This document shows, piece by piece, positions 6,028 to 47,354 of a stretch of DNA of 53,085 nucleotides (positions are counted from its first letter, which is position 1; each line of letters begins with the position of its first letter). The position numbers were made by a program, and so were the translations under genes. A model generated the notes under the pieces. The model worked only from the letters and a program-made list of their open reading frames with translations. It did no database searches and was not told the origin of the DNA. The stretch lies in the NCBI GenBank assembly GCA_964516865.1, contig CAZEXD010000001.1, positions 1 to 53,085 of the forward strand, read 5' to 3'. The stretch comes from an uncultured Candidatus Saccharibacteria bacterium (GTDB lineage: Bacteria > Patescibacteriota > Minisyncoccia > Minisyncoccales > Staskawiczbacteraceae).

Positions 6028-9000
6028 ATGAGTATACGAACAAAAATCATTACCGCAACAGCCGCTTCAATTTTGGGGGCTTTATTGCTCTCGGGAGTGG
6101 CAGTTGCTTACACTGGCATTCCTCAGGGCTTTACTTTCACGCGAAACCTGCCTGTTGGCACAGTTCATCAGGATGTGGTTTATCTGAAAGAAATTTTGAA
6201 AGCCGAGGGTTGCGGGGTCGGAATAACTAATACAACTTATTACGGTCCCAAGACCAAAGCGAATGTTCAGTGTTTCCAGAATAAATATAAATCACAGATA
6301 TCTGCTTACGCAGGTTATCAGATTGGGGCTACTGGTTTTGTTGGTACAGGTACCAGAGCAATGTTAAACGCTTTGCTTGCCGGCACAACCCCAACAACCC
6401 CAACAACCCCCAGCGCAGGTTTAACAGTGGCATTAGCCGCTGACAACCCGGCTTCGGGAACAATCGTTGATGGTCAAGCGCTATATCCGTTGGCAAAAAT
6501 AACCTTTACCAATGGCGATAGTTCTGAAGTAAAGGTTACCGGCCTGAAATTAAAGAGAATCGGTGTTTCAGCCGATGCTTCTTTAAATAACACCTATTTG
6601 TTTGACGGAGCCACAAGATTAACCGATGGGGCTGCTGTTTCGTCAACTGTTATTACTTTCAACGATACAGCAGGACTTTTCACGGTTCCAGCAGGTGGTT
6701 CAAAAACAATCACGGTGTCAGCTGACGTTAATGGAACAAGCGGAGAAACATTTGGGATTCAAGTTGTCGCTTCAACTGACGTGACAACAAACGCCAGTTC
6801 AGTTAAGGGCAATTTCCCGATAACCGGTAATCTGCACACATTAGCAAGCGGCACATTGGCTGGAGTTAACTTTAATGCAACAACAACCCCGTCAGCAGCT
6901 AACGTTGACCCTCAAGACGATTACACTGTTTGGCAAAACAGCGTAGTTGTTACAACAAGAGCGGTTAATATGACCCGCATTTCCTTCCGAAAGACCGGCA
7001 GCGTGGCAAACACTGATTTGCAAAACTTCCGGCTTTATGTTGATGGAGTGCAGGTTGGTTCTACAATTGCCAATTTAGACGCTAAGGGCTATGTAACTTT
7101 TGACCTGACTTCTGCTCCGCAGAGATTGGAGGCAGGCACAAGAGTTATCAAGTTGTTAGCCAATATTGTCGGCGGTTCTTCTTTGAACTTTACATTCCAT
7201 TTGTGGAATGTTGCCGATGTTACAGTTGTTGACACCCAGTATGGAGCCAATGTATTGCCGCAATCAGAGAGCACAACATTTTCAAAGAGGTCATCTGGGG
7301 AACAATCAGTTAACTCTGGCGTAATCACCTTTACCAAGATGGCTGATTCTCCAACTGGAAATATTGTTAACAGTGCTTCAAATGCGCTATTGGCAAAATT
7401 CCAAGTTAAAGCAGCCGGAGAAAAAATAAAGGTTGAAAGCCTTAAAGTTTCACTGGTTTGCAGCGACTCTGATGTGAGTTATTTGAGAAACGGAATGCTG
7501 TTGGCTAACGGAGTCCAGATTGGAAGCACTTCAAACTTAAAATGCACCAACCAATCAACTCCTTACACCAGCTTCAGTTTAGGTTCATCATTGATAGTTG
7601 AACCGGGAAATCCGGTAACATTGGAGGTAAAAGCTGATATTTACGATAACGATGGCACTAATGATATAGATGCTGGTGACACCCTTAAAGCCAGGATTGA
7701 AGGTTCTTCTTCAGAGAACAACGCTATTGGTCAGGTATCCGCAGCCACAATTGACGCGCCGTCATCTGATGTTGACGGCAACACTTTGACCGTGGCAACA
7801 GGCGGTTTGACCTTGTCCAAATACACTGCTTACACCAACCAATCAATGGTTCCGCCATTGACTGCTGCTAAAATTGCTCACTTTACCTTGACTGCCAACA
7901 CAACAGAGGCGGTTAATATCAACACCATTCAGATTAACTTGAATAATGTTATAAGCAGTTACGCAAGCAACCTTTATGTGAAGTTTGGCGACCAGACCAC
8001 AACTGTCAAGCCAAGCATTTCAGCTTACCAGAACAGTTGGTCTGTCAACTATACTTTGGCAGCCGGTCAGACAAAAGACCTGATTGTTTACGCAGATATT
8101 AACTCTTCTGCTTCAGGCACCGGAACAGTTGGCGCCTATATCACAGGCACAACAGCCAGTTCAGCTACTTCTGTTACAGCCGGCGGTTCAACAACCACAG
8201 ACAGCGGTCAGTCAATTGCCTTTACTACAGGCACATTTACTCCCGCAGTTGATGGTTCAACGCCATTGGCGGCAATCGTTGCCGGCGGACAGCAAGTTGT
8301 GGCGGGTAGATTCAAATTTACCACCCTGTACGAAAACTACACTCTAAAAGAAGTAAGGTTCACTCTTGGCGCCGCTGCTCGTTCAGCTGCAATTAATAAC
8401 CTTATTCTGAAAGACGGCGACACAGTCTTAGCTACGGTTCCTTATGACAACACGAATGAATACTTTAATATTACCGGATTAAATGTTTCTATTCCGGCTA
8501 ATACCACCAAAGTATTGTCCGTGGTTTATGATTTGTCTTCAAGCATATCTTCATCAACCAGCACTTCGCAGGTTGATGTTCAGCCAACCTTAGCTTATGT
8601 GAAATACGCAGACAGCCAGGGTGTTGAAACAACTAGCAGTACCACCTACTCAACCAACAAAGAGGTCTATGTGTTCAAGTCAATTCCGACTGTAAGCAAA
8701 GTTGCGGTGACAACTTCAACTTTGTCAAATCAGACAGTTGATTTGTACAGCTGGAAAATTGCTGCAGACGCCAAAGGCCCTATTGCCGTAAAACAGGTTA
8801 AATTAGACCTTACCTGGAGAGATACCTCAGGTGACAGCACGCTTTACTTGTACGCCTTCAAGCTTTATAAGGATGGTAACGATATTTCCAGCCTAGTGAC
8901 AATCACAGACGAAGACGGACACAACCTTGAAACAACAACAGCTGCTTCAGGAGCCAATGAAGACTCTTCTAAGGTTATTATCTACTGGGCAACAGAAGAC

Positions 9001-9366
9001 ACTATTTCAGCCGGCAGTTCAGCGACTTATGTTTTAAGGGCAACTGCTTCAGGATTTGCGGCAACAGCTAATAAGACAGCTGACGATGGAGTGTCAATCA
9101 ATTTGGCTGGCGATACAACGGTAAACGGCGCTACGGTTAAATACATTAACGAAACTGCTAATACTCCCGGCGGTTATATAGCTTTGGTAACATCTACCGG
9201 AGGCTCTTCTACCGACGCCAACTTTATCTGGTCTGATGTCAGCGCCTTGTCTCACCTTTATACCACCGCCTCAACAGGTAGTACCCCAACATCCAGCGGC
9301 GACTGGGCGAACGGTTATCTGGTGAAAGATTTGCCGTTGTCCTCAACCACTTGGGTTGGACCGTAA
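6028..9366 (+). CDS. Large secreted cell-surface (S-layer-like) protein: signal peptide, PG_binding_1-like domain, Pro/Thr linker, at least six beta-sandwich-like repeats
   Basis: Signal peptide ...GVAVA/YT; VHQDVVYLKEILKAEGCG...YYGPKTKANVQCFQNKYKS...GTGTRAMLNALL (PG-binding pattern); TPTTPTTPS linker; recurring ~100-130 aa modules; Thr/Ser/Ala/Gly/Val-rich; visibly more GC-rich than flanks. Confidence 0.8.
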   Translation: MSIRTKIITATAASILGALLLSGVAVAYTGIPQGFTFTRNLPVGTVHQDVVYLKEILKAEGCGVGITNTTYYGPKTKANVQCFQNKYKSQISAYAGYQIGATGFVGTGTRAMLNALLAGTTPTTPTTPSAGLTVALAADNPASGTIVDGQALYPLAKITFTNGDSSEVKVTGLKLKRIGVSADASLNNTYLFDGATRLTDGAAVSSTVITFNDTAGLFTVPAGGSKTITVSADVNGTSGETFGIQVVASTDVTTNASSVKGNFPITGNLHTLASGTLAGVNFNATTTPSAANVDPQDDYTVWQNSVVVTTRAVNMTRISFRKTGSVANTDLQNFRLYVDGVQVGSTIANLDAKGYVTFDLTSAPQRLEAGTRVIKLLANIVGGSSLNFTFHLWNVADVTVVDTQYGANVLPQSESTTFSKRSSGEQSVNSGVITFTKMADSPTGNIVNSASNALLAKFQVKAAGEKIKVESLKVSLVCSDSDVSYLRNGMLLANGVQIGSTSNLKCTNQSTPYTSFSLGSSLIVEPGNPVTLEVKADIYDNDGTNDIDAGDTLKARIEGSSSENNAIGQVSAATIDAPSSDVDGNTLTVATGGLTLSKYTAYTNQSMVPPLTAAKIAHFTLTANTTEAVNINTIQINLNNVISSYASNLYVKFGDQTTTVKPSISAYQNSWSVNYTLAAGQTKDLIVYADINSSASGTGTVGAYITGTTASSATSVTAGGSTTTDSGQSIAFTTGTFTPAVDGSTPLAAIVAGGQQVVAGRFKFTTLYENYTLKEVRFTLGAAARSAAINNLILKDGDTVLATVPYDNTNEYFNITGLNVSIPANTTKVLSVVYDLSSSISSSTSTSQVDVQPTLAYVKYADSQGVETTSSTTYSTNKEVYVFKSIPTVSKVAVTTSTLSNQTVDLYSWKIAADAKGPIAVKQVKLDLTWRDTSGDSTLYLYAFKLYKDGNDISSLVTITDEDGHNLETTTAASGANEDSSKVIIYWATEDTISAGSSATYVLRATASGFAATANKTADDGVSINLAGDTTVNGATVKYINETANTPGGYIALVTSTGGSSTDANFIWSDVSALSHLYTTASTGSTPTSSGDWANGYLVKDLPLSSTTWVGP

Positions 9367-9419: not shown

Positions 9420-9454
9420 CAAAGACCCCGCCTTTAATGGCGGGGCTTTGTTTT
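9420..9454 (+). terminator. Rho-independent terminator of the surface-protein gene
   Basis: CAAAGACCCCGCC-TTTAAT-GGCGGGGCTTTG followed by TTTT. Confidence 0.8.
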
Positions 9455-9930: not shown

Positions 9931-12381
9931 CTAATAAGGTAATGTTTTCAAAAACTCCTCAATATCAGCTTTTGCCGCAGGTTCTATTTTTAAGATTTCC
10001 AGAGCTGTTTCCCGCGCTTTTTTATATTCGCCAAGTTCTTTATATATAAAAGCTAAAGTAGCGTAATATTGGATGTTTTTTTTATCCATTTTTATTAACG
10101 ATTCATAAATAGGAGCAAGTTTTTTGTAATTTTTGGCGGTTGTATACACAATTGCCAGCTGGCTGTATGATTGCTGATTATCGTAGGAATATCCCTTTTC
10201 TTTAGCCAGTTCAATATCTTTTTCTCCTTCTTGCTCTTCGTTTAGCGCGATTTCAGACAGCCCGAGATACCAGTAGCAGGAGCTAAGATTGTCTTCCAAA
10301 ACAAGGCACTGCCCGGCTTTTTCTTTCATTTTTTTAAAGTCGGCTGAGGCAAAATAAGCTTCTGCCAAGCCCATTAAAACTTCCTGGCGTTTGGGGCTTA
10401 ATTTTTGGGCTTTTGCCAGATAGTTCTCGCTCTTTTCCAAAAGCGATTTTTTTATTTCAGGATTTGTCTCCCTGGCTATTAAAACATTATTAAACTGGGC
10501 TAATAGAATCCAGCTTCTTGTGTAATTTGGGTGTATTTTTGCGCTGTATTTTAAGGCGTCTATTGATTTTTTTATGTATTCTAATTCGTTGTCTTTAATA
10601 TAATTTTCGCAACTCTTTACATTATCCACATATTTTAAACGCAAAAAAGAATCAAGAAAACTTTTTTGGCTGAATAATTTTTCAAAATCCTGCAATTTTT
10701 TATCGCAAACCAAGTCCTCTGCTTTGTTTATTTCTGCGTTTATTAAGAGCGGTTTTAGGTTGTATTTCCACAAAAACAATATCAGTAAAACTAATAAGGT
10801 GGTGATAATGATTTTTTTATGTTTTAATATTTTTCCGCTGAAATTACGCTGATTACTACGCTGATTTTCGCTGAGATTTTCGGCGTTCTTCCGCGTGGCC
10901 ATCAGTGTTGAATCAGCGGTGCCTGGTAAAGTCAGGTGTAGGGAATAGCCAATTATAAAAAAGAGCATTATATGAGTCGTAACGCTGTTAAATTCAAAAA
11001 ATAAATCTGTAAAATAAGCGATAAAGATTGCCTGTATGGCGTGGGCTGATATCTGTGTTTCTTTTTGTTCTGTTCTGTGTTTTGATCTGTGTAGCCGCCA
11101 GAATAGATAACCAAAGAAAAAAAGATAAACTAATAAAAACGGCAATCCGTATTGCACGGCGATATCCAAAAATATATTGTGGGCTCGGTCCCACCAGTCC
11201 TCGGTGGTTTTAATAAGATATGGCAAAGAAGGGTCGTAATATTTGTCAAACGCGATTGATTGGTTTTCCGGACCCCAGCCCAAAATTGGTTTTTCTTGTA
11301 TCGCCTTAAAAAATGTCTGCCAGGCGGAAAAACGGGTTTTAGTCAAATCTTGCACAGTCTCTTTAACAGATAATCGGTTGGCGATAAAAGATAATTTTTG
11401 ATTGTTTTTAATGAAATCGGGGAGGTTAGTTGTAGTGTTTAAATATAAAATAGCGGCGGCGAGCAAGGTTAAAATTAAAAAACCCGCTATTTTTATTTTC
11501 GCTCCCTCAGAACTTCGCGGCAGAAACTTTTTGCACAGCAAAAAAATAGATTTTTTTTGTCTTGCCATAGATTGGATAATTTGTTGGGAATTTTGTTTTT
11601 GCCCGTTTTGTAAAGGCAATTTTTTAACCGGATAAAAGAGAAAAAAGTAAAGCAAGCCGACGGCTAACCCAAGATAGCCGGAACGGGAACCAGAGATAAA
11701 AAGTCCAAACAAGAACACTGCAAGAGACAAGACATAAAAAAGTTTTTTTATTCCCCTTTCTTTTATAACGAAAGATAGAGCCGGGAAAAATAAAAGCAGC
11801 AGATAAATCGCCAGAAGTATAGGGCTGGATAGGGTAGAGGGCGGTCTGCTCTCGTAAGGAATAAAAATTTTAGGCAGAAGATTGTAATACTGTATCGCGG
11901 CAAAAAGCACGGCTATAATGCCAATGCAAAAAGAAAAGTCCCAAAGTTTTTTCCAATCTTTTTCTTTTGCGATTAGAAATAAGATTGCCGCGAATAGAAT
12001 ATAAAAAGCAAAATTTATAAATCCTCCGGAGCGGTGGGGCGACGTCCATAAACTAAACAAAACATCGCGCGAAAATATTGTTGACAAAAGAGCAAGCAGA
12101 AAAACTGCGCAAAAAATCCAAAAAATCATTTTTTGGCCGGCAATCCTTTCTTTTATTTGGTTTATAAATTTGTTTTCAAAGATTATTTGCCAGATAAAAA
12201 CAAGCAAAATAATAGAAAAAACAATTCTAAAAACAATTGCTTTTCCCCATTCCGGGGGGAAAAAATAAGGCGGAAGCGCTAAAATCGGCAAAGCTAAAAT
12301 TATAAAAAATCCGGTTAAATATAACCAATGAAGTTTATTAGAATGAGTGGGCATTGTTGTTTGAGTTAGGTTAATAGCCAA
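9931..12381 (-). CDS. Wzy_C (O-antigen ligase / O-oligosaccharyltransferase family) polytopic membrane protein with C-terminal TPR domain
   Basis: Many TM helices; SGSRSGYLGLAVGLLYFF and WGPENQS...WWDRAHNIFLDIAVQYGLPFLL match Wzy_C signatures; one more TM, then TPR-like repeats (YYATLAFIYKELGEYKKARETALEILKIEP). Confidence 0.8.
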   Translation of the reverse strand: MAINLTQTTMPTHSNKLHWLYLTGFFIILALPILALPPYFFPPEWGKAIVFRIVFSIILLVFIWQIIFENKFINQIKERIAGQKMIFWIFCAVFLLALLSTIFSRDVLFSLWTSPHRSGGFINFAFYILFAAILFLIAKEKDWKKLWDFSFCIGIIAVLFAAIQYYNLLPKIFIPYESRPPSTLSSPILLAIYLLLLFFPALSFVIKERGIKKLFYVLSLAVFLFGLFISGSRSGYLGLAVGLLYFFLFYPVKKLPLQNGQKQNSQQIIQSMARQKKSIFLLCKKFLPRSSEGAKIKIAGFLILTLLAAAILYLNTTTNLPDFIKNNQKLSFIANRLSVKETVQDLTKTRFSAWQTFFKAIQEKPILGWGPENQSIAFDKYYDPSLPYLIKTTEDWWDRAHNIFLDIAVQYGLPFLLVYLFFFGYLFWRLHRSKHRTEQKETQISAHAIQAIFIAYFTDLFFEFNSVTTHIMLFFIIGYSLHLTLPGTADSTLMATRKNAENLSENQRSNQRNFSGKILKHKKIIITTLLVLLILFLWKYNLKPLLINAEINKAEDLVCDKKLQDFEKLFSQKSFLDSFLRLKYVDNVKSCENYIKDNELEYIKKSIDALKYSAKIHPNYTRSWILLAQFNNVLIARETNPEIKKSLLEKSENYLAKAQKLSPKRQEVLMGLAEAYFASADFKKMKEKAGQCLVLEDNLSSCYWYLGLSEIALNEEQEGEKDIELAKEKGYSYDNQQSYSQLAIVYTTAKNYKKLAPIYESLIKMDKKNIQYYATLAFIYKELGEYKKARETALEILKIEPAAKADIEEFLKTLPY

Positions 12382-13034: not shown

Positions 13035-13484
13035 ATGAAGAAAATAGTTATTACCTCTGGCTATTTTAATCCATTGCACATCGGCCATATAAACTTATTT
13101 AGAGAAGCCAAGAAATTAGGCGATATTTTGGTTGTGATAGTCAACAATGATGAGCAGGTAAAGCTAAAAGGAAGCGTTCCCTTTATGTCGGAATCAGAAA
13201 GAATGGAAATTATAAAAGCGATAAGATATGTTGACGAGATTTTTCTGTCTATAGATAAAGATAAAAGCGTGACAGAAAGTTTGAAAGCGGTTGCTCAGAA
13301 ATACGTCGGCAATGAATTATTTTTTGCCAAAGGCGGAGACAGAAACGCGGACAATATTCCCGAAAGTGAAAAGCAGATTTGCCAAAAATATAATATAAAA
13401 ATAGTAAACAATGTCGGCGGAGATAAAGTGCAAAGTTCATCTTGGCTTTTAGCCAGGGTAAAAACAAATGAAAGACAATTTTAA
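13035..13484 (+). CDS. Cytidylyl/adenylyl-transferase family protein (TagD / RfaE domain II-like)
   Basis: HxGH motif in GYFNPLHIGHINLF; about 150 aa nucleotidyltransferase size; Shine-Dalgarno-like aagagga upstream. Confidence 0.7.
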   Translation: MKKIVITSGYFNPLHIGHINLFREAKKLGDILVVIVNNDEQVKLKGSVPFMSESERMEIIKAIRYVDEIFLSIDKDKSVTESLKAVAQKYVGNELFFAKGGDRNADNIPESEKQICQKYNIKIVNNVGGDKVQSSSWLLARVKTNERQF

Positions 13485-14190
13485 AAAAATAGGAATTTTA
13501 GGATACGGAGAAATTGGCAAGGCAATTGCCAAGTTTTATAAAAATCCAAAAATTAAAGATTTAAATAGAGATGATGGATTAGAAGGCGTGGATATTTTGC
13601 ATATTTGCATTCCATGGTCTAAAAAATTCGTTAGCATAGTCGCTAAAGAAATTCAAAGAATAAAACCAAAACTTACCATAATTCACTCAACCGTGGCTTT
13701 GGGCGAGACAAAAAAATTATCAGATAAATTTAGGGGAATGGTGGTCCACAGCCCCGTGCGCGGCGTTCACCCTTATCTTTATCAAGGTATAAAAACTTTT
13801 GTAAAATATATCGGCGCTGATAACAAAAAAGCCGCAAAAATGGCAAAAAAACATTTGGAGAGTTTAGGAATTAAAACAAAAGTTTTTTATCCTTCAGCGA
13901 CAACCGAAGCATTAAAACTGTGGGACACCACTCAATACGGCTGGTTTATAGTTTTAAATAAAGAAATTAAAAAATGGTGCGATAAAAATAGTTTAGATTT
14001 TGAAGCAGTTTATACAGACGCCAACAAAACCTATAACGAGGGCTATAAAAAATTAGGCAGGCCAGAAGTGGTAAGGCCCTATTTAAAATACATAGAAGGA
14101 AAAATAGGCGGCCATTGTATAATTCCCAATTGTCGTATTTTAAAGAGCGAAATCGCCAAGCTTATCTTGCGTAAAAATATTTCATATTGA
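13468..14190 (+). CDS. Short NAD(P)-binding protein related to the UDP-glucose/GDP-mannose dehydrogenase family
   Basis: GILGYGEIGKAIA Rossmann motif; TTEALKLWDTTQYGW and GGHCIIPN resemble the family's central helix and catalytic-Cys motifs, but only 240 aa. Confidence 0.4.
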   Translation: MKDNFKKIGILGYGEIGKAIAKFYKNPKIKDLNRDDGLEGVDILHICIPWSKKFVSIVAKEIQRIKPKLTIIHSTVALGETKKLSDKFRGMVVHSPVRGVHPYLYQGIKTFVKYIGADNKKAAKMAKKHLESLGIKTKVFYPSATTEALKLWDTTQYGWFIVLNKEIKKWCDKNSLDFEAVYTDANKTYNEGYKKLGRPEVVRPYLKYIEGKIGGHCIIPNCRILKSEIAKLILRKNISY

Positions 14191-38816: not shown

Positions 38817-39749
38817 ATGAATATTTTAAAAAACAAAACAATTTTGGTAACAGGGGGCGCCGGATTCATTGGTAGTCATCTGGTTGATAGATTAATAAAA
38901 GATGGTTATCGGGTGATAGTTATAGATAATCTTTCAACCGGCAAGAAAGAAAATATCAATCCGCAGGCGGATTTTTATCAACTTGATATTTGCGATTTTG
39001 AGAAAATAAAACCAATTTTTCAAGGAGTTGATGGCGTCTTTCATTTAGCCGCTATTCCTCGAGTGCCTTTATCTATTAAAGATCCAGTTGGTACTTCTCG
39101 GGTAAATATATTGGGTACAATTAATATTTTTAAAGCGTCAATTGAAAATGGTGTTAAAAAAGTTGTTTTTGCTTCTTCCTCCTCTGTTTATGGTAATCAA
39201 AAACGCTTACCCCTTAAAGAGACGATGATTCCAGCTCCTTTGAGTCCTTATGGTTTGCAAAAACTTGTTGGTGAAAAATTTGCTAAACTTTTTACGCAAC
39301 TTTATAAAATTCCTATTATTTCTTTGCGTTATTTTAATGTTTACGGTCCTCGGATTGACTTTAATTCTGATTATAGTTTAGTTCTTGGAAAATTTTTAAG
39401 ATTAAAAGCAGAAAAAAAACCTCTGACAATTTTTGGAGACGGAGAACAAACAAGAGGTTTTTGTTTTGTTGACGATGTTGTGGAGGCAAGCATTAAAGCG
39501 ATGAAGAGCGATAAATTAAATGGCGGAGTGATAATTAATATCGGCCAGAAAAAAAGCTATTCAATCAACTATTTAGCCAAACTCATAGGCGGCGAGATTG
39601 TTTATTTGCCCCCGCGACCCGGCGATCCTCTTCATACTCGGGCGGATATTTCGTTAGCAAGAAAACTTTTAGATTGGGAGCCCAAAATTGATTTTAATGA
39701 GGGGGTTGAAATTACGAAAAAATGGTTTCAAGAAAGCTATGGAGAATAA
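38817..39749 (+). CDS. NAD-dependent sugar-nucleotide 4-epimerase/dehydratase (GalE/WbpP-like SDR)
   Basis: ILVTGGAGFIGSHLVDRLIKDGYRVIVIDNLSTG, SPYGLQKLVGE, YFNVYGPR. Confidence 0.85.
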   Translation: MNILKNKTILVTGGAGFIGSHLVDRLIKDGYRVIVIDNLSTGKKENINPQADFYQLDICDFEKIKPIFQGVDGVFHLAAIPRVPLSIKDPVGTSRVNILGTINIFKASIENGVKKVVFASSSSVYGNQKRLPLKETMIPAPLSPYGLQKLVGEKFAKLFTQLYKIPIISLRYFNVYGPRIDFNSDYSLVLGKFLRLKAEKKPLTIFGDGEQTRGFCFVDDVVEASIKAMKSDKLNGGVIINIGQKKSYSINYLAKLIGGEIVYLPPRPGDPLHTRADISLARKLLDWEPKIDFNEGVEITKKWFQESYGE

Positions 39750-40905
39750 AAAAATTAAAATATGTCATGTTGCTTCAGCCGACATTACGGTAAAATTTTT
39801 ATTGCTTCCGCAATTAGAATTTCTGAAAAAGCAGGGATATGATGTTTCGGTTGTTTGTTCTTTGGGCAAATGGATAAAAGATATAGAAAGTAAAGGAATA
39901 AAAGTAAAAATAATAAGAATTACAAGAAACATAACCTTCCTCAGAGATACAATTAGCCTTGTAAAATTATTTTTTTATTTTAAAAAAGAAAAATTTGATA
40001 TAATTCACACTCATACTCCAAAACCCGGCCTTTTGGGTCAGTTGGCTGGCAGGTTAGCCGGCGCGCCAATAATTGTAAACACCATTCACGGTTTATACTT
40101 TCAAAAAAGTTCATCGTTATTTAAAAAAAGTTTTTTTTCTTACATAGAAAAAATTTCAGCACTGTGTTCTGATTTAATTTTTTCCCAAAACAAAGAAGAC
40201 ATAAGCACGATAATAGATAAAAAAATAGCCCCCCCCAATAAAGTAATTTATTTAGGAAACGGGGTAGATATAAATAAGTTTAATTTTAAAAGATTTTCCA
40301 AAGAATTTATAGAAAATAAGAAAAAACAGCTTGGTATTGATTCTAATCTTAAAGTTGTGGGGACTGTTGGAAGATTGGTAAAAGAAAAAGGACATCTTGA
40401 ATTGTTTTCTGCGTTTAAAAAGGTTTTATCGTTTTATACTCAAACATTACTTTTAATAGTTGGTCCGGAAGATTTAGAAAAAAAAGATTCTTTTAACAAA
40501 AATTTGGTTAGAGAATATGGAATAGAGAAAAATACAATTTTTTTGGGCGAAAGAGATGATGTTGATGAAATTTATCCTTTGATGGATTTGTTTGTTTTGG
40601 CATCGCATAGAGAGGGTTTTCCCAGAACAGTGATAGAAGCCATGGCAACGGAAAGGCCGATTATTGCTACGAATATACGAGGATGTAGGGAGGCGATTGA
40701 AGATGGTATTACCGGTAAATTAGTTGAATCCGGCAATTCCCAAGAATTGGCTGAAGCTATAATATTTTTTCTAAAGAATCCAGAAAAGGCACGAGAATTT
40801 GGATTAAATGCCAGAAAGAAAGCCGAAAAAGATTTTAATGAAGAAATAGTTTTTGATAAAATAAAAGAATGTTATGATAAAATTATTTCTCAAAAGATTG
40901 TTTGA
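39739..40905 (+). CDS. Family 4 glycosyltransferase (PglA/WbuB-like position next to the initiating transferase)
   Basis: ICHVASADITVKFLL..., VLASHREGFPRTVIEAMATERPIIATNIRGCREAIEDGITGKLV; ATG 39739 preferred over the track's 39688. Confidence 0.8.
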   Translation: MENKKIKICHVASADITVKFLLLPQLEFLKKQGYDVSVVCSLGKWIKDIESKGIKVKIIRITRNITFLRDTISLVKLFFYFKKEKFDIIHTHTPKPGLLGQLAGRLAGAPIIVNTIHGLYFQKSSSLFKKSFFSYIEKISALCSDLIFSQNKEDISTIIDKKIAPPNKVIYLGNGVDINKFNFKRFSKEFIENKKKQLGIDSNLKVVGTVGRLVKEKGHLELFSAFKKVLSFYTQTLLLIVGPEDLEKKDSFNKNLVREYGIEKNTIFLGERDDVDEIYPLMDLFVLASHREGFPRTVIEAMATERPIIATNIRGCREAIEDGITGKLVESGNSQELAEAIIFFLKNPEKAREFGLNARKKAEKDFNEEIVFDKIKECYDKIISQKIV

Positions 40906-41476
40906 TGTTTTTGTTTCTGTGGTTGCGTTAATTATATTATTGCCGCTTTTTTTAATAATCGCTATTTTAATTAAGATTGATTCTAAAGAACCTGTATTTT
41001 TTAGGCAAGAAAGGATAGGTAAAAACGGAGAACCATTTTATATTTTAAAATTTAGGACTATGATTGAAGGAGCGGTAGATAAGGGTTTGGGATATACTGT
41101 GGCTCAAAACGACGAAAGAATAACAAGAATTGGTAAATTTTTAAGAAAGTGGGGGATTGATGAATTTCCTCAATTAATAAATGTTTTAAAAGGAGAAATG
41201 AGTTTAGTGGGTCCAAGACCGACTTTGAGATATCAGGTTGAGAAATATACTGATTTTCAAAAAAAAAGATTGCAGGTTAAGCCGGGAATAACCAGTTGGG
41301 CTTTAATTCACGGTAGAAACTTGCTTTCTTGGGAAGAAAGGATAAAATACGATGTTTGGTATATAGAAAATTGGTCTTTGTGGTTGGATATAAAAATAAT
41401 ATTAAAGACATTTTATCTAATTTTTATTAAACAAGAAGGAGTTTACGGCAAAGATGGCATAAACGACCCCTTTTAA
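40874..41476 (+). CDS. Small monotopic phosphoglycosyl transferase (PglC/WbaP-C-terminal 'bacterial sugar transferase' family), glycan initiator
   Basis: KRLFDVFVSVVALIILLPLFLIIAILIKIDSKEPVFFRQERIGKNGEPFYILKFRTM, DEFPQLINVLKGEMSLVGPRP. Confidence 0.9.
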   Translation: MIKLFLKRLFDVFVSVVALIILLPLFLIIAILIKIDSKEPVFFRQERIGKNGEPFYILKFRTMIEGAVDKGLGYTVAQNDERITRIGKFLRKWGIDEFPQLINVLKGEMSLVGPRPTLRYQVEKYTDFQKKRLQVKPGITSWALIHGRNLLSWEERIKYDVWYIENWSLWLDIKIILKTFYLIFIKQEGVYGKDGINDPF

Positions 41477-41609
41477 TTCTTTGATAACTCTTTTAAACAA
41501 ACAAATAAGTAAAAAATAAGACAGTAAAATTAGTCAAAACAAATAATAATAAAAATTAAAAAACAACAAAACAACAAATACAAATAAAAAATAATTAAAA
41601 TTAACTTCA

Positions 41610-41633
41610 GTTCTATGGTTCGGTCCGTCGAAC
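41610..41633. promoter_or_regulatory. Imperfect 24-nt palindrome GTTCTATGGTTCGGTCCGTCGAAC
   Basis: 10 nt upstream of ATG 41644; same half-site word (TTCTATGG) as the perfect palindrome at 42182..42203. Confidence 0.5.
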
Positions 41634-41643
41634 TAAAAATAAA

Positions 41644-42171
41644 ATGCCAAATTTTCATCTAAACGACTTACCTAAAGAGAAAAGAATTCAAATGATAGGC
41701 GAATTCTATGATACAATAGATTCATTAAGAAATAGAAACGAAGTTCGTCTTTTTTTCAAAAGTTTGTTAACCGCTGATGAAATCGCCACGTTGATGAGAA
41801 GAATAGAGATAGCAGTGCTTTTGTCCGCCAAATTTACATATGACGAAATAATTGAAATTTTAGGGGTTAGTAAAGGTAAAATCTCTAACGTTCATAAAAA
41901 TTTATTACAGGATGACAGCGGATATAAAATAATTGTTAAAAGATTAATTGAAAATCGCAAGCAACGATTAAGAAGAATTAAAAAAGAAAACAAAGGAAAT
42001 TTGTCGCTGTTTGAGGTTATAAAAAAGAAATACTCTGGTCATTTTCTTTTACAAAATCTATTAGATGCGGCAATAGAGAAATTAGAAGAAGATGATAAAT
42101 CTTTAGAAAGAGAAGCAGTGCTTTTTACACCTTCAGCAACTTTTTTTAAAATTAATAAAAACAAAAGGTAA
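41644..42171 (+). CDS. TrpR/YerC-YecD-like DNA-binding protein
   Basis: LTADEIATLMRRIEIAVLLSAKFTYDEIIEILGVSKGKISNVHKNL fits the Trp-repressor-like HTH pattern. Confidence 0.5.
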   Translation: MPNFHLNDLPKEKRIQMIGEFYDTIDSLRNRNEVRLFFKSLLTADEIATLMRRIEIAVLLSAKFTYDEIIEILGVSKGKISNVHKNLLQDDSGYKIIVKRLIENRKQRLRRIKKENKGNLSLFEVIKKKYSGHFLLQNLLDAAIEKLEEDDKSLEREAVLFTPSATFFKINKNKR

Positions 42172-42181
42172 TTATAAGTAA

Positions 42182-42203
42182 TTCTATGGATCGATCCATA
42201 GAA
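42182..42203. promoter_or_regulatory. Perfect 22-nt palindrome TTCTATGGATC|GATCCATAGAA
   Basis: Read directly; lies between the TrpR-like gene and the acyltransferase-aminotransferase-dehydratase genes. Confidence 0.55.
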
Positions 42204-42241
42204 CCAAAATGATAAAATATTAAAATGATAAATTATGATAA

Positions 42242-42646
42242 ATGATAAAAAATAATAAAAAATGGCGGAAGCCGATAATTAGAGAAGGGAAGCTAACGAA
42301 ATGGAACTGGATGGTGCAAGGGATTAAAAGTTTTAAGTTGGGCAAAAAGGTTGATATTGGCGCTTTTACTTATATAAATGCAAAGGAGGGAGTGACTATT
42401 GAAGACGGGGTGAAGATAGGATCCCATTGTTCCATATATTCTGTTTCTACTATTGATAATAAAAAAGGGAAGGTTATTCTTAAAAAAAATTGCAAAGTTG
42501 GCGCCAATTCCGTTATTATGCCAGGTATTACAATAGGAGAAAATTCAATTGTCGGCGCGTTAAGTTTTGTCAATAAAGATATACCGGATAATGTTATAGC
42601 TTACGGAATACCGGTGAAAATAATTAAAAAATTGGACAATGTATAA
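42242..42646 (+). CDS. Left-handed beta-helix (hexapeptide) acyltransferase, PglD/WbpD-like role
   Basis: Hexapeptide repeats: VDIGAFTYINAKEGVTIEDGVKIGSHCSIYS...KVGANSVIMPGITIGENSIVGALSFV. Confidence 0.7.
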   Translation: MIKNNKKWRKPIIREGKLTKWNWMVQGIKSFKLGKKVDIGAFTYINAKEGVTIEDGVKIGSHCSIYSVSTIDNKKGKVILKKNCKVGANSVIMPGITIGENSIVGALSFVNKDIPDNVIAYGIPVKIIKKLDNV

Positions 42647-43769
42647 AATTCCTCTTGCAAAGATAGACATTACGGAAAAAGAAAAAAAAGCGGTAGAAAA
42701 AGTTTTAAATAACTCATATTTAAGTTTGGGAAAAAAATATCTTGAATTTGAAAAAATAATGGCGAGGTTTTCCAGCGTAAAATATGCCATAGCGGTAAAC
42801 AGCGGAACGAGCGGTTTGCATTTAATTATCAGGGCGCTGGGAATAGGAGAGGGAGATGAAGTAATAACAACGCCATTTTCTTTTATTGCTTCTTCAAATT
42901 GTATTTTGTATGAAAAAGCAAAGCCGGTTTTTGTGGATATCGATGAGAAAACTTTTAATATCAATGTTTCGAAAATTGAAGAGAAAATAACCAAAAAAAC
43001 AAAAGCGATTTTAGCGGTTGATGTTTTTTCTCAACCCGCTGATTGGAACGAATTAGAAAAAATAGCAAAAAAATATAATCTTTTATTGATTGAAGATTCT
43101 GCCGAAGCTTTGGGGTCTGAGTATAAAGGAAAAAAGTGCGGCAGTTTCGGAGACGCTGCTATTTTTGCTTTTTATCCTAATAAACAAATTACCACCGGCG
43201 AGGGGGGAATGATTTTGACTAATAATAGAAAAATATATAATTTATGCAGGAGTATGGCAAATCAGGGAAGAAGAATAAAAAACGGCAAATGGTTGGAACA
43301 TATAATGTTGGGCTATAATTACCGTTTGGATGAAATGAGTTGTGCCTTAGGCATAGCTCAAATGGAAAGGATACAAGAAATTTTAGAAAAAAGAAAAAAG
43401 GTAGCTGATTTATATAACAAAAAACTAAAGTCAGTAAAAGGGTTAGAAACTCTATATATAAAACCGGGCAATAAAATAAGTTGGTTTGTTTATGTGGTAA
43501 AGTTATCTGAGACTTTAATCGGTAAGAGAGATGAAATTATTAAAAGAATGGCAAAAAGAGGAATACAATGCGGCAATTACTTTCAATCAATCCACCTACA
43601 ATCTTTTTATAGAAAAGAATTTTCATATAAGATAGGCGATTTTCCAGTCGCGGAAAACCTAAGTAAAAGAACATTGGCTCTGCCGTTTTTCAATAATCTA
43701 ACTGAAAAAGAAATAGATTTTGTAGTTAGGAGTTTAAAAGAGATTATAAAAAATTATACCCAAGAGTAG
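42639..43769 (+). CDS. DegT-family aminotransferase (PglE-like, third copy)
   Basis: AIAVNSGTSGLHLIIRALG, FAFYPNKQITTGEGGMILTN (PLP Lys), YRLDEMSCALGIAQM. Confidence 0.85.
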   Translation: MYKIPLAKIDITEKEKKAVEKVLNNSYLSLGKKYLEFEKIMARFSSVKYAIAVNSGTSGLHLIIRALGIGEGDEVITTPFSFIASSNCILYEKAKPVFVDIDEKTFNINVSKIEEKITKKTKAILAVDVFSQPADWNELEKIAKKYNLLLIEDSAEALGSEYKGKKCGSFGDAAIFAFYPNKQITTGEGGMILTNNRKIYNLCRSMANQGRRIKNGKWLEHIMLGYNYRLDEMSCALGIAQMERIQEILEKRKKVADLYNKKLKSVKGLETLYIKPGNKISWFVYVVKLSETLIGKRDEIIKRMAKRGIQCGNYFQSIHLQSFYRKEFSYKIGDFPVAENLSKRTLALPFFNNLTEKEIDFVVRSLKEIIKNYTQE

Positions 43770-43813
43770 AATTCTAATTCGCTAAAGTTTTTTTATCTTG
43801 AATTAAATAAAAA

Positions 43814-45664
43814 ATGATTAATATTTTCAAGAAAACAGCCAGAACCAGATTTTTGTTTTTTGTCATTTCTGATATGGTTTTGATTATTTCTGCCGTGCTA
43901 TTATCCTTTCTCATAAGGTTTGATTGGAATGTTCCGGCAAATTACTCCCCTTTTATTTTAAAGACAGCGGCGCTTGCTATTATTTTCATAATTCCGATAT
44001 TTTATTTTTCGAAACTTTATTCTTTTTCTTGGTCTTATGTCAGCACCAACGAATTGATTTCTTTATTTAAAGCAATTACTCTTTCTTTTTTCTTTTTAGG
44101 TATTACCATTTATATCTCCAAAGATTTTCCTTTTTTCACCAATTTCCCGCGTTCCACTCTTTTTATAAGTTATTTTTTAGTTTTTATTTTTTGCGGCGCA
44201 ATTCGTTTTGCTAAAAGAATTTGGTTACAGATATTTGGGTTAGGATTAATAAAAGAAAAAGAAAAAACTTTAATCGCCGGCGCCGGTGATGCTGGCGAAC
44301 AAATTTTAAGAAGTATTTTAATGTCAAAAAAAAGTCCTTACTTGCCTGTTGGTTTTGTTGACGATAATCCGATAAAACAAAAGACAATAATTCATGGTAT
44401 TAAGGTTTTGGGAAAAACCAATGATATTCCCAAAATAGTGAAAAATTATCAAGTAAAACAGCTTATTATTGCTTTTCCTTCAGCTGGCGTTTCAATAATT
44501 AGAAAAACGGTTGAATTAGGAAGAAAAGCAGGGTTGAAAAAAATTAAAATTATTCCGCCAATAACTGAAATTATAAATAGTGGTATTTCTTTAAAAAATC
44601 TTAAAGAAATTGAAGTAGAAGATTTATTAGGGAGAGAGCCGGTTGATTTAGAGTTAAAGGAAATTGAAAAATTTATTAAAGACAAAATTATTTTGGTTAC
44701 CGGCGCCGCCGGTTCAATTGGTTCTGAGTTGTCAAAACAAATTGCAAGGTTTAAACCATCTTTACTTTTGTTATTAGACCAAGATGAGACGGGAATTTTT
44801 AATATTTCTGAGGAATTAGAAGATAATTTTCCATCTTTAAAAATCCAAGCGTTAGTGGCGAATATTAGAGACGAACAAAAAATAAAAGCAATATTTAAAG
44901 AGTTTAAACCAAATGTTGTTTTTCATGCCGCTGCTTACAAACATGTTCCTTTGATGGAAAAACATCCCGATGAGGCAGTAAAAAACAATATTTTTGGGAC
45001 GAAAATATTGGCAGAGATTAACCTTGATTATGGAGTAGAAAAATTTATTAATATCTCTACTGATAAGGCAGTAAATCCAACCTCTGTGATGGGGGCAACA
45101 AAAAGAGTCGCGGAAATGATTTGTCAGGCGCTTAATCAAAACGCTAAAACTAAATTTATTTCCGTTAGATTTGGTAATGTTTTGGACAGCCGGGGAAGTG
45201 TAATTCCAATTTTTCGAGAACAAATAAAAAAGGGAGGACCGGTTGAGGTAACTCATTCCGAAATGAAGAGATATTTTATGCTAATATCCGAAGCTTGTCT
45301 TTTGGTTATGCAAGCTGGAGCCATTGGTAGGGGCGGAGAGGTTTTTATTTTGGATATGGGAGAGCCAATTAAAATTTTGGATTTGGCAAAAGAAATGATA
45401 AAATTGTCAGGTTTTGAACCGGATAAAGACATACCAATAGTGTTTACCGGAATAAGGCCCGGCGAGAAGTTATTCGAGGATATTTTAATAGCGGAAGAGG
45501 GCGCCGTCGCTACTAAAAATGAAAAAATATTTACTGCTAAACTTAATGATATAAATCAGGAAAATTTGAACAAACAAATAAAAGAACTGGAAAGATCGCT
45601 TTCGGCCGGGAAAAAAGAAATTGTGGAACATCTTAAAAAAATAGTACCTCTTTACAGGCCATAA
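43814..45664 (+). CDS. Membrane-anchored UDP-HexNAc 4,6-dehydratase (CapD/PglF/WbpM family)
   Basis: N-terminal TM helices, ILVTGAAGSIGSEL, AAAYKHVPLME, ISTDKAVNPTSVMGATKRVAE, VRFGNVLDSRGSVIP. Confidence 0.9.
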   Translation: MINIFKKTARTRFLFFVISDMVLIISAVLLSFLIRFDWNVPANYSPFILKTAALAIIFIIPIFYFSKLYSFSWSYVSTNELISLFKAITLSFFFLGITIYISKDFPFFTNFPRSTLFISYFLVFIFCGAIRFAKRIWLQIFGLGLIKEKEKTLIAGAGDAGEQILRSILMSKKSPYLPVGFVDDNPIKQKTIIHGIKVLGKTNDIPKIVKNYQVKQLIIAFPSAGVSIIRKTVELGRKAGLKKIKIIPPITEIINSGISLKNLKEIEVEDLLGREPVDLELKEIEKFIKDKIILVTGAAGSIGSELSKQIARFKPSLLLLLDQDETGIFNISEELEDNFPSLKIQALVANIRDEQKIKAIFKEFKPNVVFHAAAYKHVPLMEKHPDEAVKNNIFGTKILAEINLDYGVEKFINISTDKAVNPTSVMGATKRVAEMICQALNQNAKTKFISVRFGNVLDSRGSVIPIFREQIKKGGPVEVTHSEMKRYFMLISEACLLVMQAGAIGRGGEVFILDMGEPIKILDLAKEMIKLSGFEPDKDIPIVFTGIRPGEKLFEDILIAEEGAVATKNEKIFTAKLNDINQENLNKQIKELERSLSAGKKEIVEHLKKIVPLYRP

Positions 45665-45722: not shown

Positions 45723-47354
45723 ATGAAGCATCTGCTTAAAAATAAAAAAATCATATTTTTCGGTCTCTTTGCTTTATCGTTTTTTTTTGTTACTCCCGCC
45801 GAGGCAGTCAATCTTAATGATTCGATAGTTTTTAATGTTGATTCGTCATACGACGCAACCGCCAGGTTCAATTTAGAAGCTACTTTAATTAAAACTACTT
45901 CAAAACTTTATTTTTATATTGAAAAAAGCTGGTGGGATTCTCAGATTTATGCCAAGCAAAACGAGATTCTTAATAATTTAGAGATTTTATCTCAGGAATT
46001 TGAAAACAAGATTTATCCTGTTTTAACCTCTGTCTTTGGTTCTGAGTGGAATCCTGGCATCGATTCCGATAGCAAAATTACTATTTTATTCCATTTAATG
46101 AAAGGGGAAGCCGGCGGATATTTCAGAACAAATGATGAATACCTAAAACTACAAGTACCAGATTCCAACGAACGGGAAATGGTTTATTTGCCCATTAACC
46201 AATTAGATAATAGTTATAAACTAAAAGTTATTTTGGCTCACGAACTTGTTCATTTAATAACCTTCAACCAAAAAGATAAAATGTTTGGTCTTAGCGAGGA
46301 AACGTGGTTAAATGAAGCACGAGCCGAATATTCAGCCACCATCTTGGGCTATAACGATAATTATACAGGAAGTGTTCTTCGAGAAAGAATGAGAGATTTT
46401 TTAGAAAACCCCTCCGATTCATTAACAGAGTGGCGCGAAAATAAATATGATTATGCGGTGATAAATGCCTTTACCCATTATGTGGTTGATCATTATGGCG
46501 TTCAAATCTTAATTGATTCTTTAAAGACAAAATCAGTCGGCATACCAAGCATTAATGAAGCACTGAAAAAAAACGGAATTAAAAAAGATTTCTCTCAAAT
46601 ATTTACTGATTGGACAGTGGCTGTGGTAGTGAATAATTGTTCTTTTGGTAATGAATACTGTTATTTAAATCCCGATCTAAGCAGTGTGCGCATTGTTCCC
46701 AATTTAAACTTTTTGCCTTTTGGCGGCCAGAGTTCTTTGTTTGTGGCAAATATCACCAAAAACTGGGCGGGAAATTGGCAGAAAATTTTTGGAGGAAGCG
46801 GCAATCTTAAATTAGAATTTAGTAGTTTAAAAGGACTTAACTTTAAAGTGCCATATTTAATCCAAACCAAAAGCGGCGAAACCTCTTTAAATTTTTTATC
46901 ACTTGATGAAAACCAAAAGGGCGAAATTTCACTTAGTGATTTTGGGGCGCAAAATATGACATTAATCATTATTCCCTCTTTACAAACAAAATTATCAGGT
47001 TTTGACGGAAATGAGTTAACTTATCCTTATTCTTTTACTATTTCTGTTTCAGGCCAACAAAGGGGAAACCCCTTAATTCCTGTCGGATTTGCTTTTAATA
47101 AAAATCTTTATTACGGAATAAAGAGCGAAGATGTTATTTATTTAAAAATTATTTTGGCTGCCGAGGAATGCGTTTCCAACTTGGCAAACACCAATTATTT
47201 CGGCCCTGCAACCTTGAGGGGAGTAAAATGCTTCCAAAATAAATATAAATCTGAGATTTCGGCGGCCGCTGGTTATGCTATTAGGAGTACTGGTTTTGTG
47301 GGCATTGGGACAAGAATGAAGCTAAATAGTCTATTGGGCTTGACAGGGGAATAA
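45723..47354 (+). CDS. Secreted gluzincin-type (peptidase MA-like) protein with C-terminal PG_binding_1-like domain
   Basis: Signal peptide ...VTPAEA/V; AHELVHLITFNQKDKMFGLSEETWLNEARAEY (HExxH ... WLNE); C-terminal VIYLKIILAAEECVSNLANTNYFGPATLRGVKCFQNKYKSEIS...GIGTRMKLNSLL. Confidence 0.65.
   Translation: MKHLLKNKKIIFFGLFALSFFFVTPAEAVNLNDSIVFNVDSSYDATARFNLEATLIKTTSKLYFYIEKSWWDSQIYAKQNEILNNLEILSQEFENKIYPVLTSVFGSEWNPGIDSDSKITILFHLMKGEAGGYFRTNDEYLKLQVPDSNEREMVYLPINQLDNSYKLKVILAHELVHLITFNQKDKMFGLSEETWLNEARAEYSATILGYNDNYTGSVLRERMRDFLENPSDSLTEWRENKYDYAVINAFTHYVVDHYGVQILIDSLKTKSVGIPSINEALKKNGIKKDFSQIFTDWTVAVVVNNCSFGNEYCYLNPDLSSVRIVPNLNFLPFGGQSSLFVANITKNWAGNWQKIFGGSGNLKLEFSSLKGLNFKVPYLIQTKSGETSLNFLSLDENQKGEISLSDFGAQNMTLIIIPSLQTKLSGFDGNELTYPYSFTISVSGQQRGNPLIPVGFAFNKNLYYGIKSEDVIYLKIILAAEECVSNLANTNYFGPATLRGVKCFQNKYKSEISAAAGYAIRSTGFVGIGTRMKLNSLLGLTGE

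Follow-up and report, generated by a model that had tools for sequence, protein, structure and literature searches.

The 53,085-base contig CAZEXD010000001.1, which is analysed here in its entirety and called the window below (G+C near 0.32), carries an island of glycan genes beside the gene for a WaaL-like membrane enzyme of the Wzy_C family with a tetratricopeptide repeat (TPR) tail, and the gene for this enzyme converges on that of a secreted, wall-binding surface protein. With a confidence that stops a little short of even, we suggest that the locus is a surface-glycoprotein glycosylation island in which the Wzy_C enzyme transfers glycan to protein. A first-pass annotation of the same DNA had proposed a cluster for the glycosylation of a surface-layer (S-layer) protein; the surface-protein part of that proposal is partly supported, by a ligase-like enzyme and by its kept pairing with the surface protein, and the S-layer part is not. 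In the window, 49 open reading frames (ORFs) of at least 100 aa were scanned against Pfam and NCBIfam, and the genes that the annotation had listed were recovered where it had placed them as ORFs, in translation and by their Pfam and NCBIfam matches.

A WaaL-like enzyme with a TPR tail of predicted extracytoplasmic location

9931..12381, minus strand: Wzy_C protein (WaaL-like, 12 transmembrane (TM) helices) with TM13 and an extracytoplasmic TPR tail; candidate en-bloc glycan transferase

The gene for the enzyme probably starts with the ATG at 12354, which gives a protein of 807 aa. Wzy_C (PF04932) matches residues 219-420 with 81.7 bits (gathering cutoff 31.7, E 6e-23), and a precomputed PF04932 match is present in all but one of the 120 homologues listed, the exception being P0035, a protein of 519 aa with 62% query coverage. 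TPR_19, TPR_14 and TPR_17 match at residues ~730-803, within a helical repeat tail that is modelled over residues 539-807. From hydropathy and the positive-inside rule, the predicted topology is 12 TM helices, a K/R-rich cytoplasmic linker, TM13 and an external TPR tail of 270 aa; in this prediction the tail, in which four Cys are conserved, shares the outer side of the membrane with the catalytic loop.

The AlphaFold2 (AF2) model of the protein (pLDDT 87.5, pTM 0.85) has WaaL (7tpg_B) as its sole membrane-protein match in the PDB at E <= 1e-3 by Foldseek, with a target-normalised TM-score of 0.68, an E of 5.7e-4 and an identity of ~14%. The list is dominated by TPR superhelices such as OGT and SPY, which we read as generic TPR similarity and not as evidence of a protein substrate. 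A single-sequence phmmer search of the PDB sequences likewise returned TPR proteins only, WaaL being reached by the family profile, which matched 7tpg alone (E 2.6e-5 and 1.8e-6). In an hhalign comparison of the enzyme family with Escherichia coli WaaL (E 0.0033 over 168 columns), R224, R341 and H392 of the family align with R215, R288 and H338, and the same three residues also align with the matching motifs of Cupriavidus WaaL. R224 is at least 90% conserved and R341 and H392 are invariant in the family, in which the motifs are GSR, RFSAW and WWDRAHN. In WaaL these residues are functionally important, and they are conserved in PglL, where they correspond to R224, R298 and H349 of NmPglL (PMC3643930). 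The gene does not lie in a core-oligosaccharide (waa) cluster, as it would for WaaL proper; its neighbours are the surface-protein gene and Wzx-type glycan genes.

These comparisons bear directly on the possibility that the Wzy_C-TPR protein is a repeat-unit polymerase (Wzy) of a Wzx/Wzy-type polysaccharide whose attachment enzyme is encoded elsewhere. Some Wzy polymerases have Wzy_C-type loop motifs, and beside its two Wzx genes the island offers no alternative candidate for Wzy, its 462-aa membrane protein being GT-C-like. Nevertheless, we consider a polymerase improbable. The family profile, which aligns to the catalytic region of E. coli WaaL, has no similarity to either of the two E. coli K-12 polymerases compared, WbbH (O16 Wzy; E 0.19) and WzyE (E 0.62). 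Moreover, the gene lies outside the variable island, the enzyme is conserved (33-58% identity) beside glycan genes that differ, whereas polymerases usually track the repeat unit, and the window holds neither Wzz nor any other chain-length regulator. Judged by profile and by structure, the enzyme thus resembles a ligase, not a polymerase.

A conserved pairing with a wall-binding surface protein

2934..3629, plus strand: DeoR-type helix-turn-helix (HTH) protein (Pfam HTH_DeoR), outermost in the block that is conserved on the side of the surface protein
3870..4376, plus strand: extracytoplasmic function (ECF)-type sigma-70 factor (Sigma70_r2, Sigma70_r4_2), a conserved neighbour
4379-4987: YkuD L,D-transpeptidase, a peptidoglycan gene neighbouring the island
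5058..5798, plus strand: 246-aa single-pass membrane protein matching no family in Pfam or NCBIfam
6028..9366, plus strand: 1112-aa secreted surface protein, candidate glycan acceptor
9425..9446, no strand assigned: GC-rich hairpin resembling a bidirectional terminator, just 3' of the stop codon of the surface-protein gene

With each species represented by one genome, a scan gave at least 582 relatives of the enzyme, and 80 loci were kept and searched by tblastn with all window proteins. The 59 loci in which the enzyme is at least 32% identical are regarded as orthologue-like, and the denominators are the loci with enough flank. In 34 of 37 loci the Wzy_C-TPR gene has a surface-protein homologue downstream, in convergent orientation, and on the same side the 246-aa protein, the ECF sigma factor and the DeoR protein are found in 25, 25 and 22 of 27 orthologous loci, respectively. 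The glycan genes lie on the other side: at least three glycan gene types are present upstream of the enzyme in 37/42 loci, and glycan genes are found on the surface-protein side in 1/59. A homologue of the 149-aa and/or the 240-aa protein with which the island begins is located upstream in 35 of 50 orthologous loci, with a median identity of 64-69%. Across loci the length and architecture of the enzyme are constant at identities of 33-58%.

Three loci in which the enzyme is 39-50% identical (L001, L003 and L004) illustrate this layout. They share the order lamin-tail-domain (LTD) protein, DeoR HTH protein, ECF sigma factor, a ~250-aa protein without family matches and a PG_binding_1 protein of ~1170-1190 aa, followed by the convergent Wzy_C-TPR gene. 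The first gene divergent from the enzyme encodes a cytidylyltransferase-like protein of 147 aa in L001 and L004, and Wzx in L003; beyond it come glycan genes, the sets of which differ: L001 and L004 have NeuB/radical-SAM genes of nonulosonic-acid type, and L003 has transketolase and RmlD. Because the synteny is kept across dozens of species, the layout is conserved and no chance neighbourhood. Given that the enzyme is kept while the glycan varies, the pattern is the one expected of a glycan-tolerant ligase or oligosaccharyltransferase (OTase), not of a repeat-specific polymerase.

More distant Wzy_C-TPR relatives (L067-L085; 24 loci, 24-28% identity) have the surface-protein synteny in 1 of 11 loci and are without the sigma-factor synteny; glycan genes are found beside 11 of the 24, and in four the enzyme gene lies directly upstream of a same-strand gene for an HExxH wall-binding protein. 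We have treated this group as a separate paralogue family in Patescibacteria.

The surface protein itself consists of a signal peptide, a PG_binding_1-like domain (residues ~31-120), a Thr/Pro linker (119-131) and ~8-9 beta-sandwich domains. The PG_binding_1 match is just below threshold (20.5 bits, cutoff 23), and many homologues carry a precomputed match to PF01471. Ser and Thr make up 24.6% of the protein, as against 9.8% in the remaining window proteins, and 22.5-28% across 37 homologues; with an isoelectric point of 5.0 and 4 Cys the protein is acidic and poor in Cys as well as secreted and wall-anchored. More than 1000 homologues were found for the family; the 120 best, as listed, are 45-73% identical and nearly all full-length. 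An earlier description as a peptidoglycan-anchored, Thr/Ser-rich repeat protein is right about composition and the wall-binding domain, and the repeats are structural only: self-BLAST of the protein finds no sequence repeats, and its AF2 model (pLDDT 84.8) is a chain of all-beta domains. No known S-layer protein is among the top 50 Foldseek matches of this model in the PDB, which are generic multi-domain proteins of immunoglobulin (Ig)-like and macroglobulin (MG)-like type (PrgB, alpha-2-macroglobulins, integrins). As Foldseek returned such generic Ig/MG-domain arrays and no S-layer protein, the S-layer label is unproven, and we do not carry it over from the first-pass annotation.

The hairpin downstream of the surface-protein gene has 7-8 base pairs, 7 of which are G-C, and T-runs on both strands; it fits a gene that is separately terminated and probably highly expressed. 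G+C rises to 0.42-0.44 over this gene (6001-10000), compared with ~0.30 in neighbouring genes, probably as a result of a composition rich in Ala, Gly, Thr, Ser and Val and not of foreign origin. Upstream, the location of the 246-aa membrane protein after the ECF sigma factor suggests that it is an anti-sigma factor. Ahead of the regulators (9-2731) are an LTD protein, truncated at the contig start, and a right-handed beta-helix protein of 640 aa. As L003 also has an LTD protein at this place, the conserved neighbourhood holds further surface proteins. A variation on the arrangement is seen in a complete Nealsonbacteria genome (CP179888.1, locus L017, 12302-16639), where a shorter, Asp/Glu-rich protein of 667 aa, which has a coiled coil besides the same wall-binding domain, takes the place of the Thr/Ser-rich protein and an HExxH wall-binding protein directly adjoins the Wzy_C-TPR gene; the position is kept and the character of the protein has changed.

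Host lineage and the probable lack of a lipid A-core acceptor

Few of the homologues of the enzyme and the surface protein have a named source; these sources and the closest genome loci are Candidatus Staskawiczbacteria, Nealsonbacteria and other Parcubacteria/Patescibacteria, and the genome locus closest to the enzyme (L006, 52% identity) comes from a Staskawiczbacteria metagenome-assembled genome. To judge by these homologues, the host is a Candidatus Staskawiczbacteria-like, Parcubacteria-type bacterium (Parcubacteria group within the Patescibacteria group) of the candidate phyla radiation (CPR). An analysis of Parcubacteria genomes found them to be without lpxC, kdsA or lipid A; the same study called the CPR envelope unresolved and merely speculated about a glycosylated S-layer (PMC5220378). 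Because Parcubacteria are without lpxC and kdsA, a lipid A-core acceptor is unlikely in this host (PMC5220378). The lineage and the published genomes agree with the earlier proposition that the host, as its gene families had suggested, lacks an outer membrane and that the Wzy_C enzyme would then have no lipid A-core to act on. In the window, none of the 49 scanned ORFs matched an Lpx/Kdt, Waa, Wzz, LCP, ABC exporter or STT3/PglB family, which for the lipid A/core, Wzz, ABC exporter and STT3/PglB genes repeats what had been noted before.

An island with fixed ends and a variable middle

13035..14190, plus strand: 149-aa cytidylyl/adenylyltransferase-like protein (13035-13484) and 240-aa Rossmann protein, divergent from the Wzy_C-TPR gene
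14202..21785, plus strand: variable part 1, with Wzx#1, a glycosyltransferase of family 2 (GT2), methyltransferase, Ugd, Y1_Tnp-like protein, NDP-sugar epimerase/dehydratase and Wzx#2 (Pfam)
21821..25269, plus strand: sulfation module, with ATP-sulfurylase fusion, adenosine 5'-phosphosulfate (APS) kinase and Sulfotransfer_1 sulfotransferase (Pfam, NCBIfam)
25272..35899, plus strand: variable part 2, with methyltransferase, GT4, WbuC-like cupin and DegT, Fcl-like GDP-fucose synthase and Gmd, then a second cupin, a 238-aa protein of no assigned family, DegT, Glyco_trans_1_2, GT2 and GT10
34880-35899, minus strand: the GT10 fucosyltransferase of variable part 2
35970..45664, plus strand: distal block, with GT4, a GT-C (PMT_2-like) protein of 462 aa (37095-38483), epimerase and GT4, then PglC-like phosphoglycosyltransferase, TrpR-like protein, hexapeptide acetyltransferase, DegT (PglE/PseC-like) and CapD/PglF-like membrane dehydratase
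40874-41476, plus strand: the PglC-like 200-aa Bac_transf phosphoglycosyltransferase of the distal block, the initiator
45723..47354, plus strand: 543-aa secreted HExxH (zincin-like) protein with a C-terminal wall-binding domain, which marks the distal edge of the island
48460-49458: MurB, a peptidoglycan gene beside that of the 543-aa protein

The island spans 13035-45664, that is 32.6 kb of glycan genes, and so agrees with a previous estimate of about 33 kb; the genes are not as uninterrupted as had been described, being broken by the Y1_Tnp-like (18711-19352) and TrpR-like (41644-42171) genes. Seven Leloir glycosyltransferases are encoded (two GT2, three GT4, one Glyco_trans_1_2 and one GT10), together with two clear methyltransferases, where two to three had been counted, three DegT proteins, two WbuC-like cupins, two Wzx proteins and one initiator. 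The PglC-like initiator, the left-handed beta-helix (LbH) acyltransferase, DegT and CapD, the GDP-fucose genes, ugd, the seven glycosyltransferases, the sulfation module and the two Wzx of the first-pass annotation all matched.

In the initiation module, Polysacc_synt_2 (388 bits) is joined to an N-terminal membrane/CoA_binding_3 region, the 200-aa Bac_transf protein scores 241 bits and DegT 409 bits, the best NCBIfam match of the latter being PseC, below cutoff; the Hexapep protein matches NeuD/PglB/VioB with 63 bits against a cutoff of 161. At the level of families, the module appears to be a good fit to the pgl-type set for N,N'-diacetylbacillosamine (diNAcBac), PglF/E/D/C. Internal paralogues, in turn, suggest duplicated amino-sugar branches by their similarity: the two GT2 proteins (15698-16579 and 34036-34872) are 43% identical, the two cupins (27211-27633 and 30770-31183) 38% and the DegT proteins 34-37%.

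The sulfation module contains an ATP-sulfurylase fusion (21821-24007) in which a pyruvate-kinase barrel (residues 2-313) is joined to PUA_2 and ATP sulfurylase (344-713). The fusion is present at full length in L021 (69% identity), which also has the full sulfation module, and in L006, where it is cut by the locus end; L030 has a sulfurylase without the kinase domain. We know of no described kinase-sulfurylase fusion. The fusion might supply ATP or pull the reaction forward.

Comparison with related loci separates the parts of the island. The genes of variable part 1 are patchily shared, and GT10, both cupins and the 238-aa protein have no counterpart in any related locus by tblastn. Of five other genomes checked for the far end of the island, three have it (L087, L088 and L089). 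In L087 and L088 the distal order is GT4, GT-C-like protein, epimerase, GT4, Bac_transf, hexapeptide acetyltransferase, DegT, CapD and a wall-binding protein of ~565 aa; L088 has two extra genes after the GT-C-like protein and ends before the position of MurB, and L089 has Glycos_transf_4 and GNAT in place of Bac_transf and the hexapeptide acetyltransferase. MurB is next in L087 and L089, as in the window. In JACPYG010000006.1 the two ends of the island lie ~53 kb apart, compared with 33 kb here. Overall, a variable middle is enclosed by two fixed ends, and at each end there is a secreted protein that binds the wall.

That the second secreted protein has the same anchoring domain as the surface protein, as the first reading of the sequence had it, is borne out by 59% identity over 90 aa (E 5e-29) between the wall-binding domains of the 543-aa and 1112-aa proteins. 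Its HExxH motif is accompanied by weak NCBIfam matches. The protein had also been said to close the locus, and it does form the distal edge here: the ~565-aa homologue sits between CapD and MurB in L087 and L089 and after CapD at the locus end in L088. Elsewhere, though, it is a recurrent neighbour of Wzy_C-TPR genes as well. Full-length homologues of the HExxH protein are located within ~1.6 kb of a Wzy_C-TPR gene in 10 loci, in 8 of them within ~350 bp, and 4 of the 10 belong to the distant paralogue group. Proteins with this wall-binding domain are thus recurrent partners of the Wzy_C-TPR family.

The 462-aa membrane protein of the distal block had been labelled Wzy/GT-C-like. It appears to be GT-C-like (PMT_2-like), and we reject it as a Wzy polymerase on the Pfam matches of its homologues: PMT_2 is present in 22/30 and PMT in 10/30 (best E about 4e-8). 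The protein is thereby a second, independent candidate for extracytoplasmic glycosylation. This raises the alternative that the 462-aa protein is the O-glycosyltransferase of the system, in which case it would transfer single sugars from a polyprenyl-phosphate donor to the Thr/Pro linker of the surface protein, as in actinobacterial Pmt, and the Wzy_C-TPR enzyme would serve another glycoconjugate. In addition to these matches (NCBI names some family members 'glycosyltransferase family 39 protein'), the family is always found inside the glycan island beside a GT4 gene, and D91 in its first outer loop is invariant. We nevertheless give this alternative a slim chance, given that the window protein scores below the Pfam cutoff for PMT_2 (19.9 versus 26.1 bits) and has no similarity to E. 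coli ArnT, that a polyprenyl-phosphate sugar synthase was not identified and that none of the 83 loci examined has a homologue within 10 kb of its Wzy_C-TPR gene. The two GT2 proteins were considered as such synthases of the ArnC/GtrB type and rejected, as they match ArnC in the generic GT-A N-terminus only; with this and the lack of ArnT similarity, a three-component GT-C system is unsupported.

Proposed function and its main rival

We suggest the following pathway for the glycosylation of the surface protein, in which the identities of the sugars, the protein acceptor and the role of the TPR tail are those that we infer: (i) a PglF/E/D-like trio would make a UDP-sugar of the 2,4-diamino-2,4,6-trideoxyhexose type, (ii) the PglC-like phosphoglycosyltransferase would load this diNAcBac-type sugar onto undecaprenyl phosphate, (iii) the seven cytoplasmic glycosyltransferases would add fucose, amino-deoxy sugars and uronic acid, (iv) the methyltransferases and the sulfotransferase, the latter dependent on 3'-phosphoadenosine 5'-phosphosulfate (PAPS), would decorate the glycan in the cytoplasm, (v) Wzx would flip the glycan, still linked to its lipid, across to the outer membrane face, and (vi) the WaaL-fold enzyme would transfer it en bloc from its undecaprenyl-pyrophosphate carrier onto hydroxyl residues of the product of the neighbouring gene, the wall-binding surface protein, and possibly of other proteins bearing the same wall-binding domain. 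The extracytoplasmic TPR arm may hold the protein substrate.

Several points weigh against this proposal. The hhalign probability of the match to E. coli WaaL is low (9.7%), and neither PglL_A (PF15864) nor Wzy_C_2 is found in the enzyme at E <= 0.01. On the side of the acceptor, a (T/S-P)n or poly-Thr linker follows the wall-binding domain in just 14 of 37 homologues, and the protein in the acceptor position of L017 is rich in Asp/Glu and not in Thr/Ser. The GT-C (PMT_2-like) protein of the island could be the protein glycosyltransferase instead. As there are two Wzx genes and one initiator, the island may make more than one product. A surface protein that does no more than bind a wall polymer produced by the island would equally account for the adjacency of the two genes, and there is a precedent for ligation to a non-protein acceptor in TacL, a member of the O-antigen-ligase family that transfers teichoic acid to a glycolipid in Streptococcus pneumoniae, which has no outer membrane (PMC5727136).

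The last two points lead to the strongest rival, a glycopolymer anchored in the wall or membrane (a secondary cell-wall polymer, a capsule or a polymer like lipoteichoic acid), which the enzyme would ligate to a glycolipid, as TacL does, or to peptidoglycan, and at which the surface protein would dock. The peptidoglycan genes murB and ykuD adjoin the island, both flanking secreted proteins have a PG_binding_1-like domain, the conserved initiation block could yield a conserved linkage unit and, since the window has no LCP ligase, another ligase would be needed. On the other hand, strong conservation of the wall-binding domain contrasts with the variation of most of the island, genes for a glycolipid anchor or for teichoic acid were not found, and the closest conserved neighbour of the enzyme is a convergent protein gene outside the glycan operons. 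Moreover, a TPR tail has been reported for the putative protein O-OTase WsfB (PMC2943079). On balance we regard the glycopolymer as unlikely, and we favor transfer to the surface protein.

If this holds, O-glycosylation of proteins by Wzy_C-type OTases extends to a major uncultured radiation, and the locus would be a new source both of O-OTases that tolerate different glycans and of rare bacterial glycans that carry sulfate. We also consider, more loosely than the proposal for this locus, the possibility of a general O-glycosylation system throughout the Parcubacteria and perhaps much of the CPR, in which a WaaL-fold/TPR enzyme would coat a peptidoglycan-docked Ig-array protein with hypervariable, partly sulfated glycans; these would be encoded by an island of 30-50 kb whose ends are fixed and whose middle can be exchanged. 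Such a system would amount to an 'O-antigen on protein' for ultra-small cells that lack an outer membrane and would be a likely determinant of host attachment and phage recognition. The make-up of the envelope in CPR/Patescibacteria is an acknowledged open question, for which the locus offers a concrete cross-genome hypothesis that names a wall protein family (>1000 homologues), a transferase family (at least 582 relatives) and a glycan island between fixed anchors. Full-text literature searches found no papers linking CPR/Patescibacteria to O-antigen ligases, and for Patescibacteria and oligosaccharyltransferases they returned one unrelated paper only.

Comparison with known systems

Under the proposed reading, the system operates in the manner of the slg and PglL systems already known, in a new radiation; unusual here are the PG_binding_1-anchored Ig-like array as candidate acceptor, the combination of fixed ends with a variable middle in the island, and the sulfation module. 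WsfB, the putative S-layer O-OTase of Paenibacillus alvei, consists of Wzy_C and a C-terminal TPR, and in the case of WsaB a separate TPR protein is encoded upstream, beside the wsaB gene (PMC2943079). In Geobacillus stearothermophilus the glycosylation cluster lies directly downstream of the gene that encodes the S-layer protein (PMC6254364). By their published descriptions, the slg loci (WsfB/SpaA of P. alvei, WsaB/SgsE of G. stearothermophilus) share with the present locus a host without an outer membrane, a Wzy_C-family transferase and a lipid-carrier glycan built by the phosphoglycosyltransferase and glycosyltransferases of one locus. The enzyme here has the WsfB-type architecture of Wzy_C and C-terminal TPR, a likeness taken from the published description, and its gene has a location of the slg type, beside a cluster of initiator, glycosyltransferase, nucleotide-sugar and exporter genes. 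The P. alvei locus also has a small cytidylyltransferase gene, tagD, which is paralleled by the gene at 13035-13484, and an AsnB homologue, which is paralleled by Asn_synthase genes in L086 and in L088. The differences are that the host is a CPR bacterium, that the acceptor candidate is a PG_binding_1-anchored Ig-like array in place of an SLH-anchored or known S-layer protein, that the initiator is of the PglC/diNAcBac type and not a Gal-1-P transferase, that export is by Wzx, whereas G. stearothermophilus uses an ABC transporter, and that the island, at 33-53 kb, is far larger, has a variable middle between conserved ends and includes a PAPS sulfation module.

PglL genes usually adjoin acceptor genes (PMC3643930). 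With the PglL/PilO O-OTases of Neisseria, Acinetobacter and Burkholderia, the enzyme has in common the Wzy_C core together with the R/R/H residues that WaaL also has (PMC3643930), a gene beside that of the presumed acceptor and, as the conserved enzyme and the variable islands suggest, a tolerance of varied glycans; the diNAcBac-type initiation module is similar to that of Neisseria pgl at the family level. It differs from them in having neither PglL_A nor Wzy_C_2, in an extra thirteenth TM helix and an external TPR domain of ~270 aa, in a neighbour that is not a pilin and in a host without an outer membrane.

WaaL (7TPG/7TPJ; E. coli WaaL), with which the Arg/Arg/His residues align, is the only solved relative by profile and fold. 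Here, by contrast, no lipid A-core acceptor is expected (PMC5220378), there is no waa cluster, a TPR tail is present and the identity in the structural alignment is ~14%. TacL of S. pneumoniae is alike, by description only, in belonging to the O-antigen-ligase family, in a host without an outer membrane and in an undecaprenyl-pyrophosphate-linked donor (PMC5727136). Teichoic-acid and choline genes are not present here. To our knowledge, TacL is also without a TPR tail.

Insertion-like genes and the contig end

Neither tRNA genes nor matches to Rfam families were found within the window, and a tRNA-linked integration site is therefore not indicated. Several small, insertion-like genes break the conserved gene orders and are absent, or nearly so, from related loci: PDDEXK_3 (9482-9892, minus strand) and 23S_rRNA_IVP (12426-12758, minus strand), which flank the Wzy_C gene, the Y1_Tnp-like and TrpR-like genes of the island, a PaaX-like gene (47618-48193) and an rve transposase gene (50654-51736). 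Just outside the island lies a gene for a pyruvoyl-dependent arginine decarboxylase (PvlArgDC, 49960-50502). At the contig end, an ORF without a stop codon (~51802-53085, plus strand) encodes another surface protein, Cys-rich and with a signal peptide and PKD/Ig-like repeats of 83 aa (249 nt), the direct repeats of which start at 52241, 52739 and 52988.

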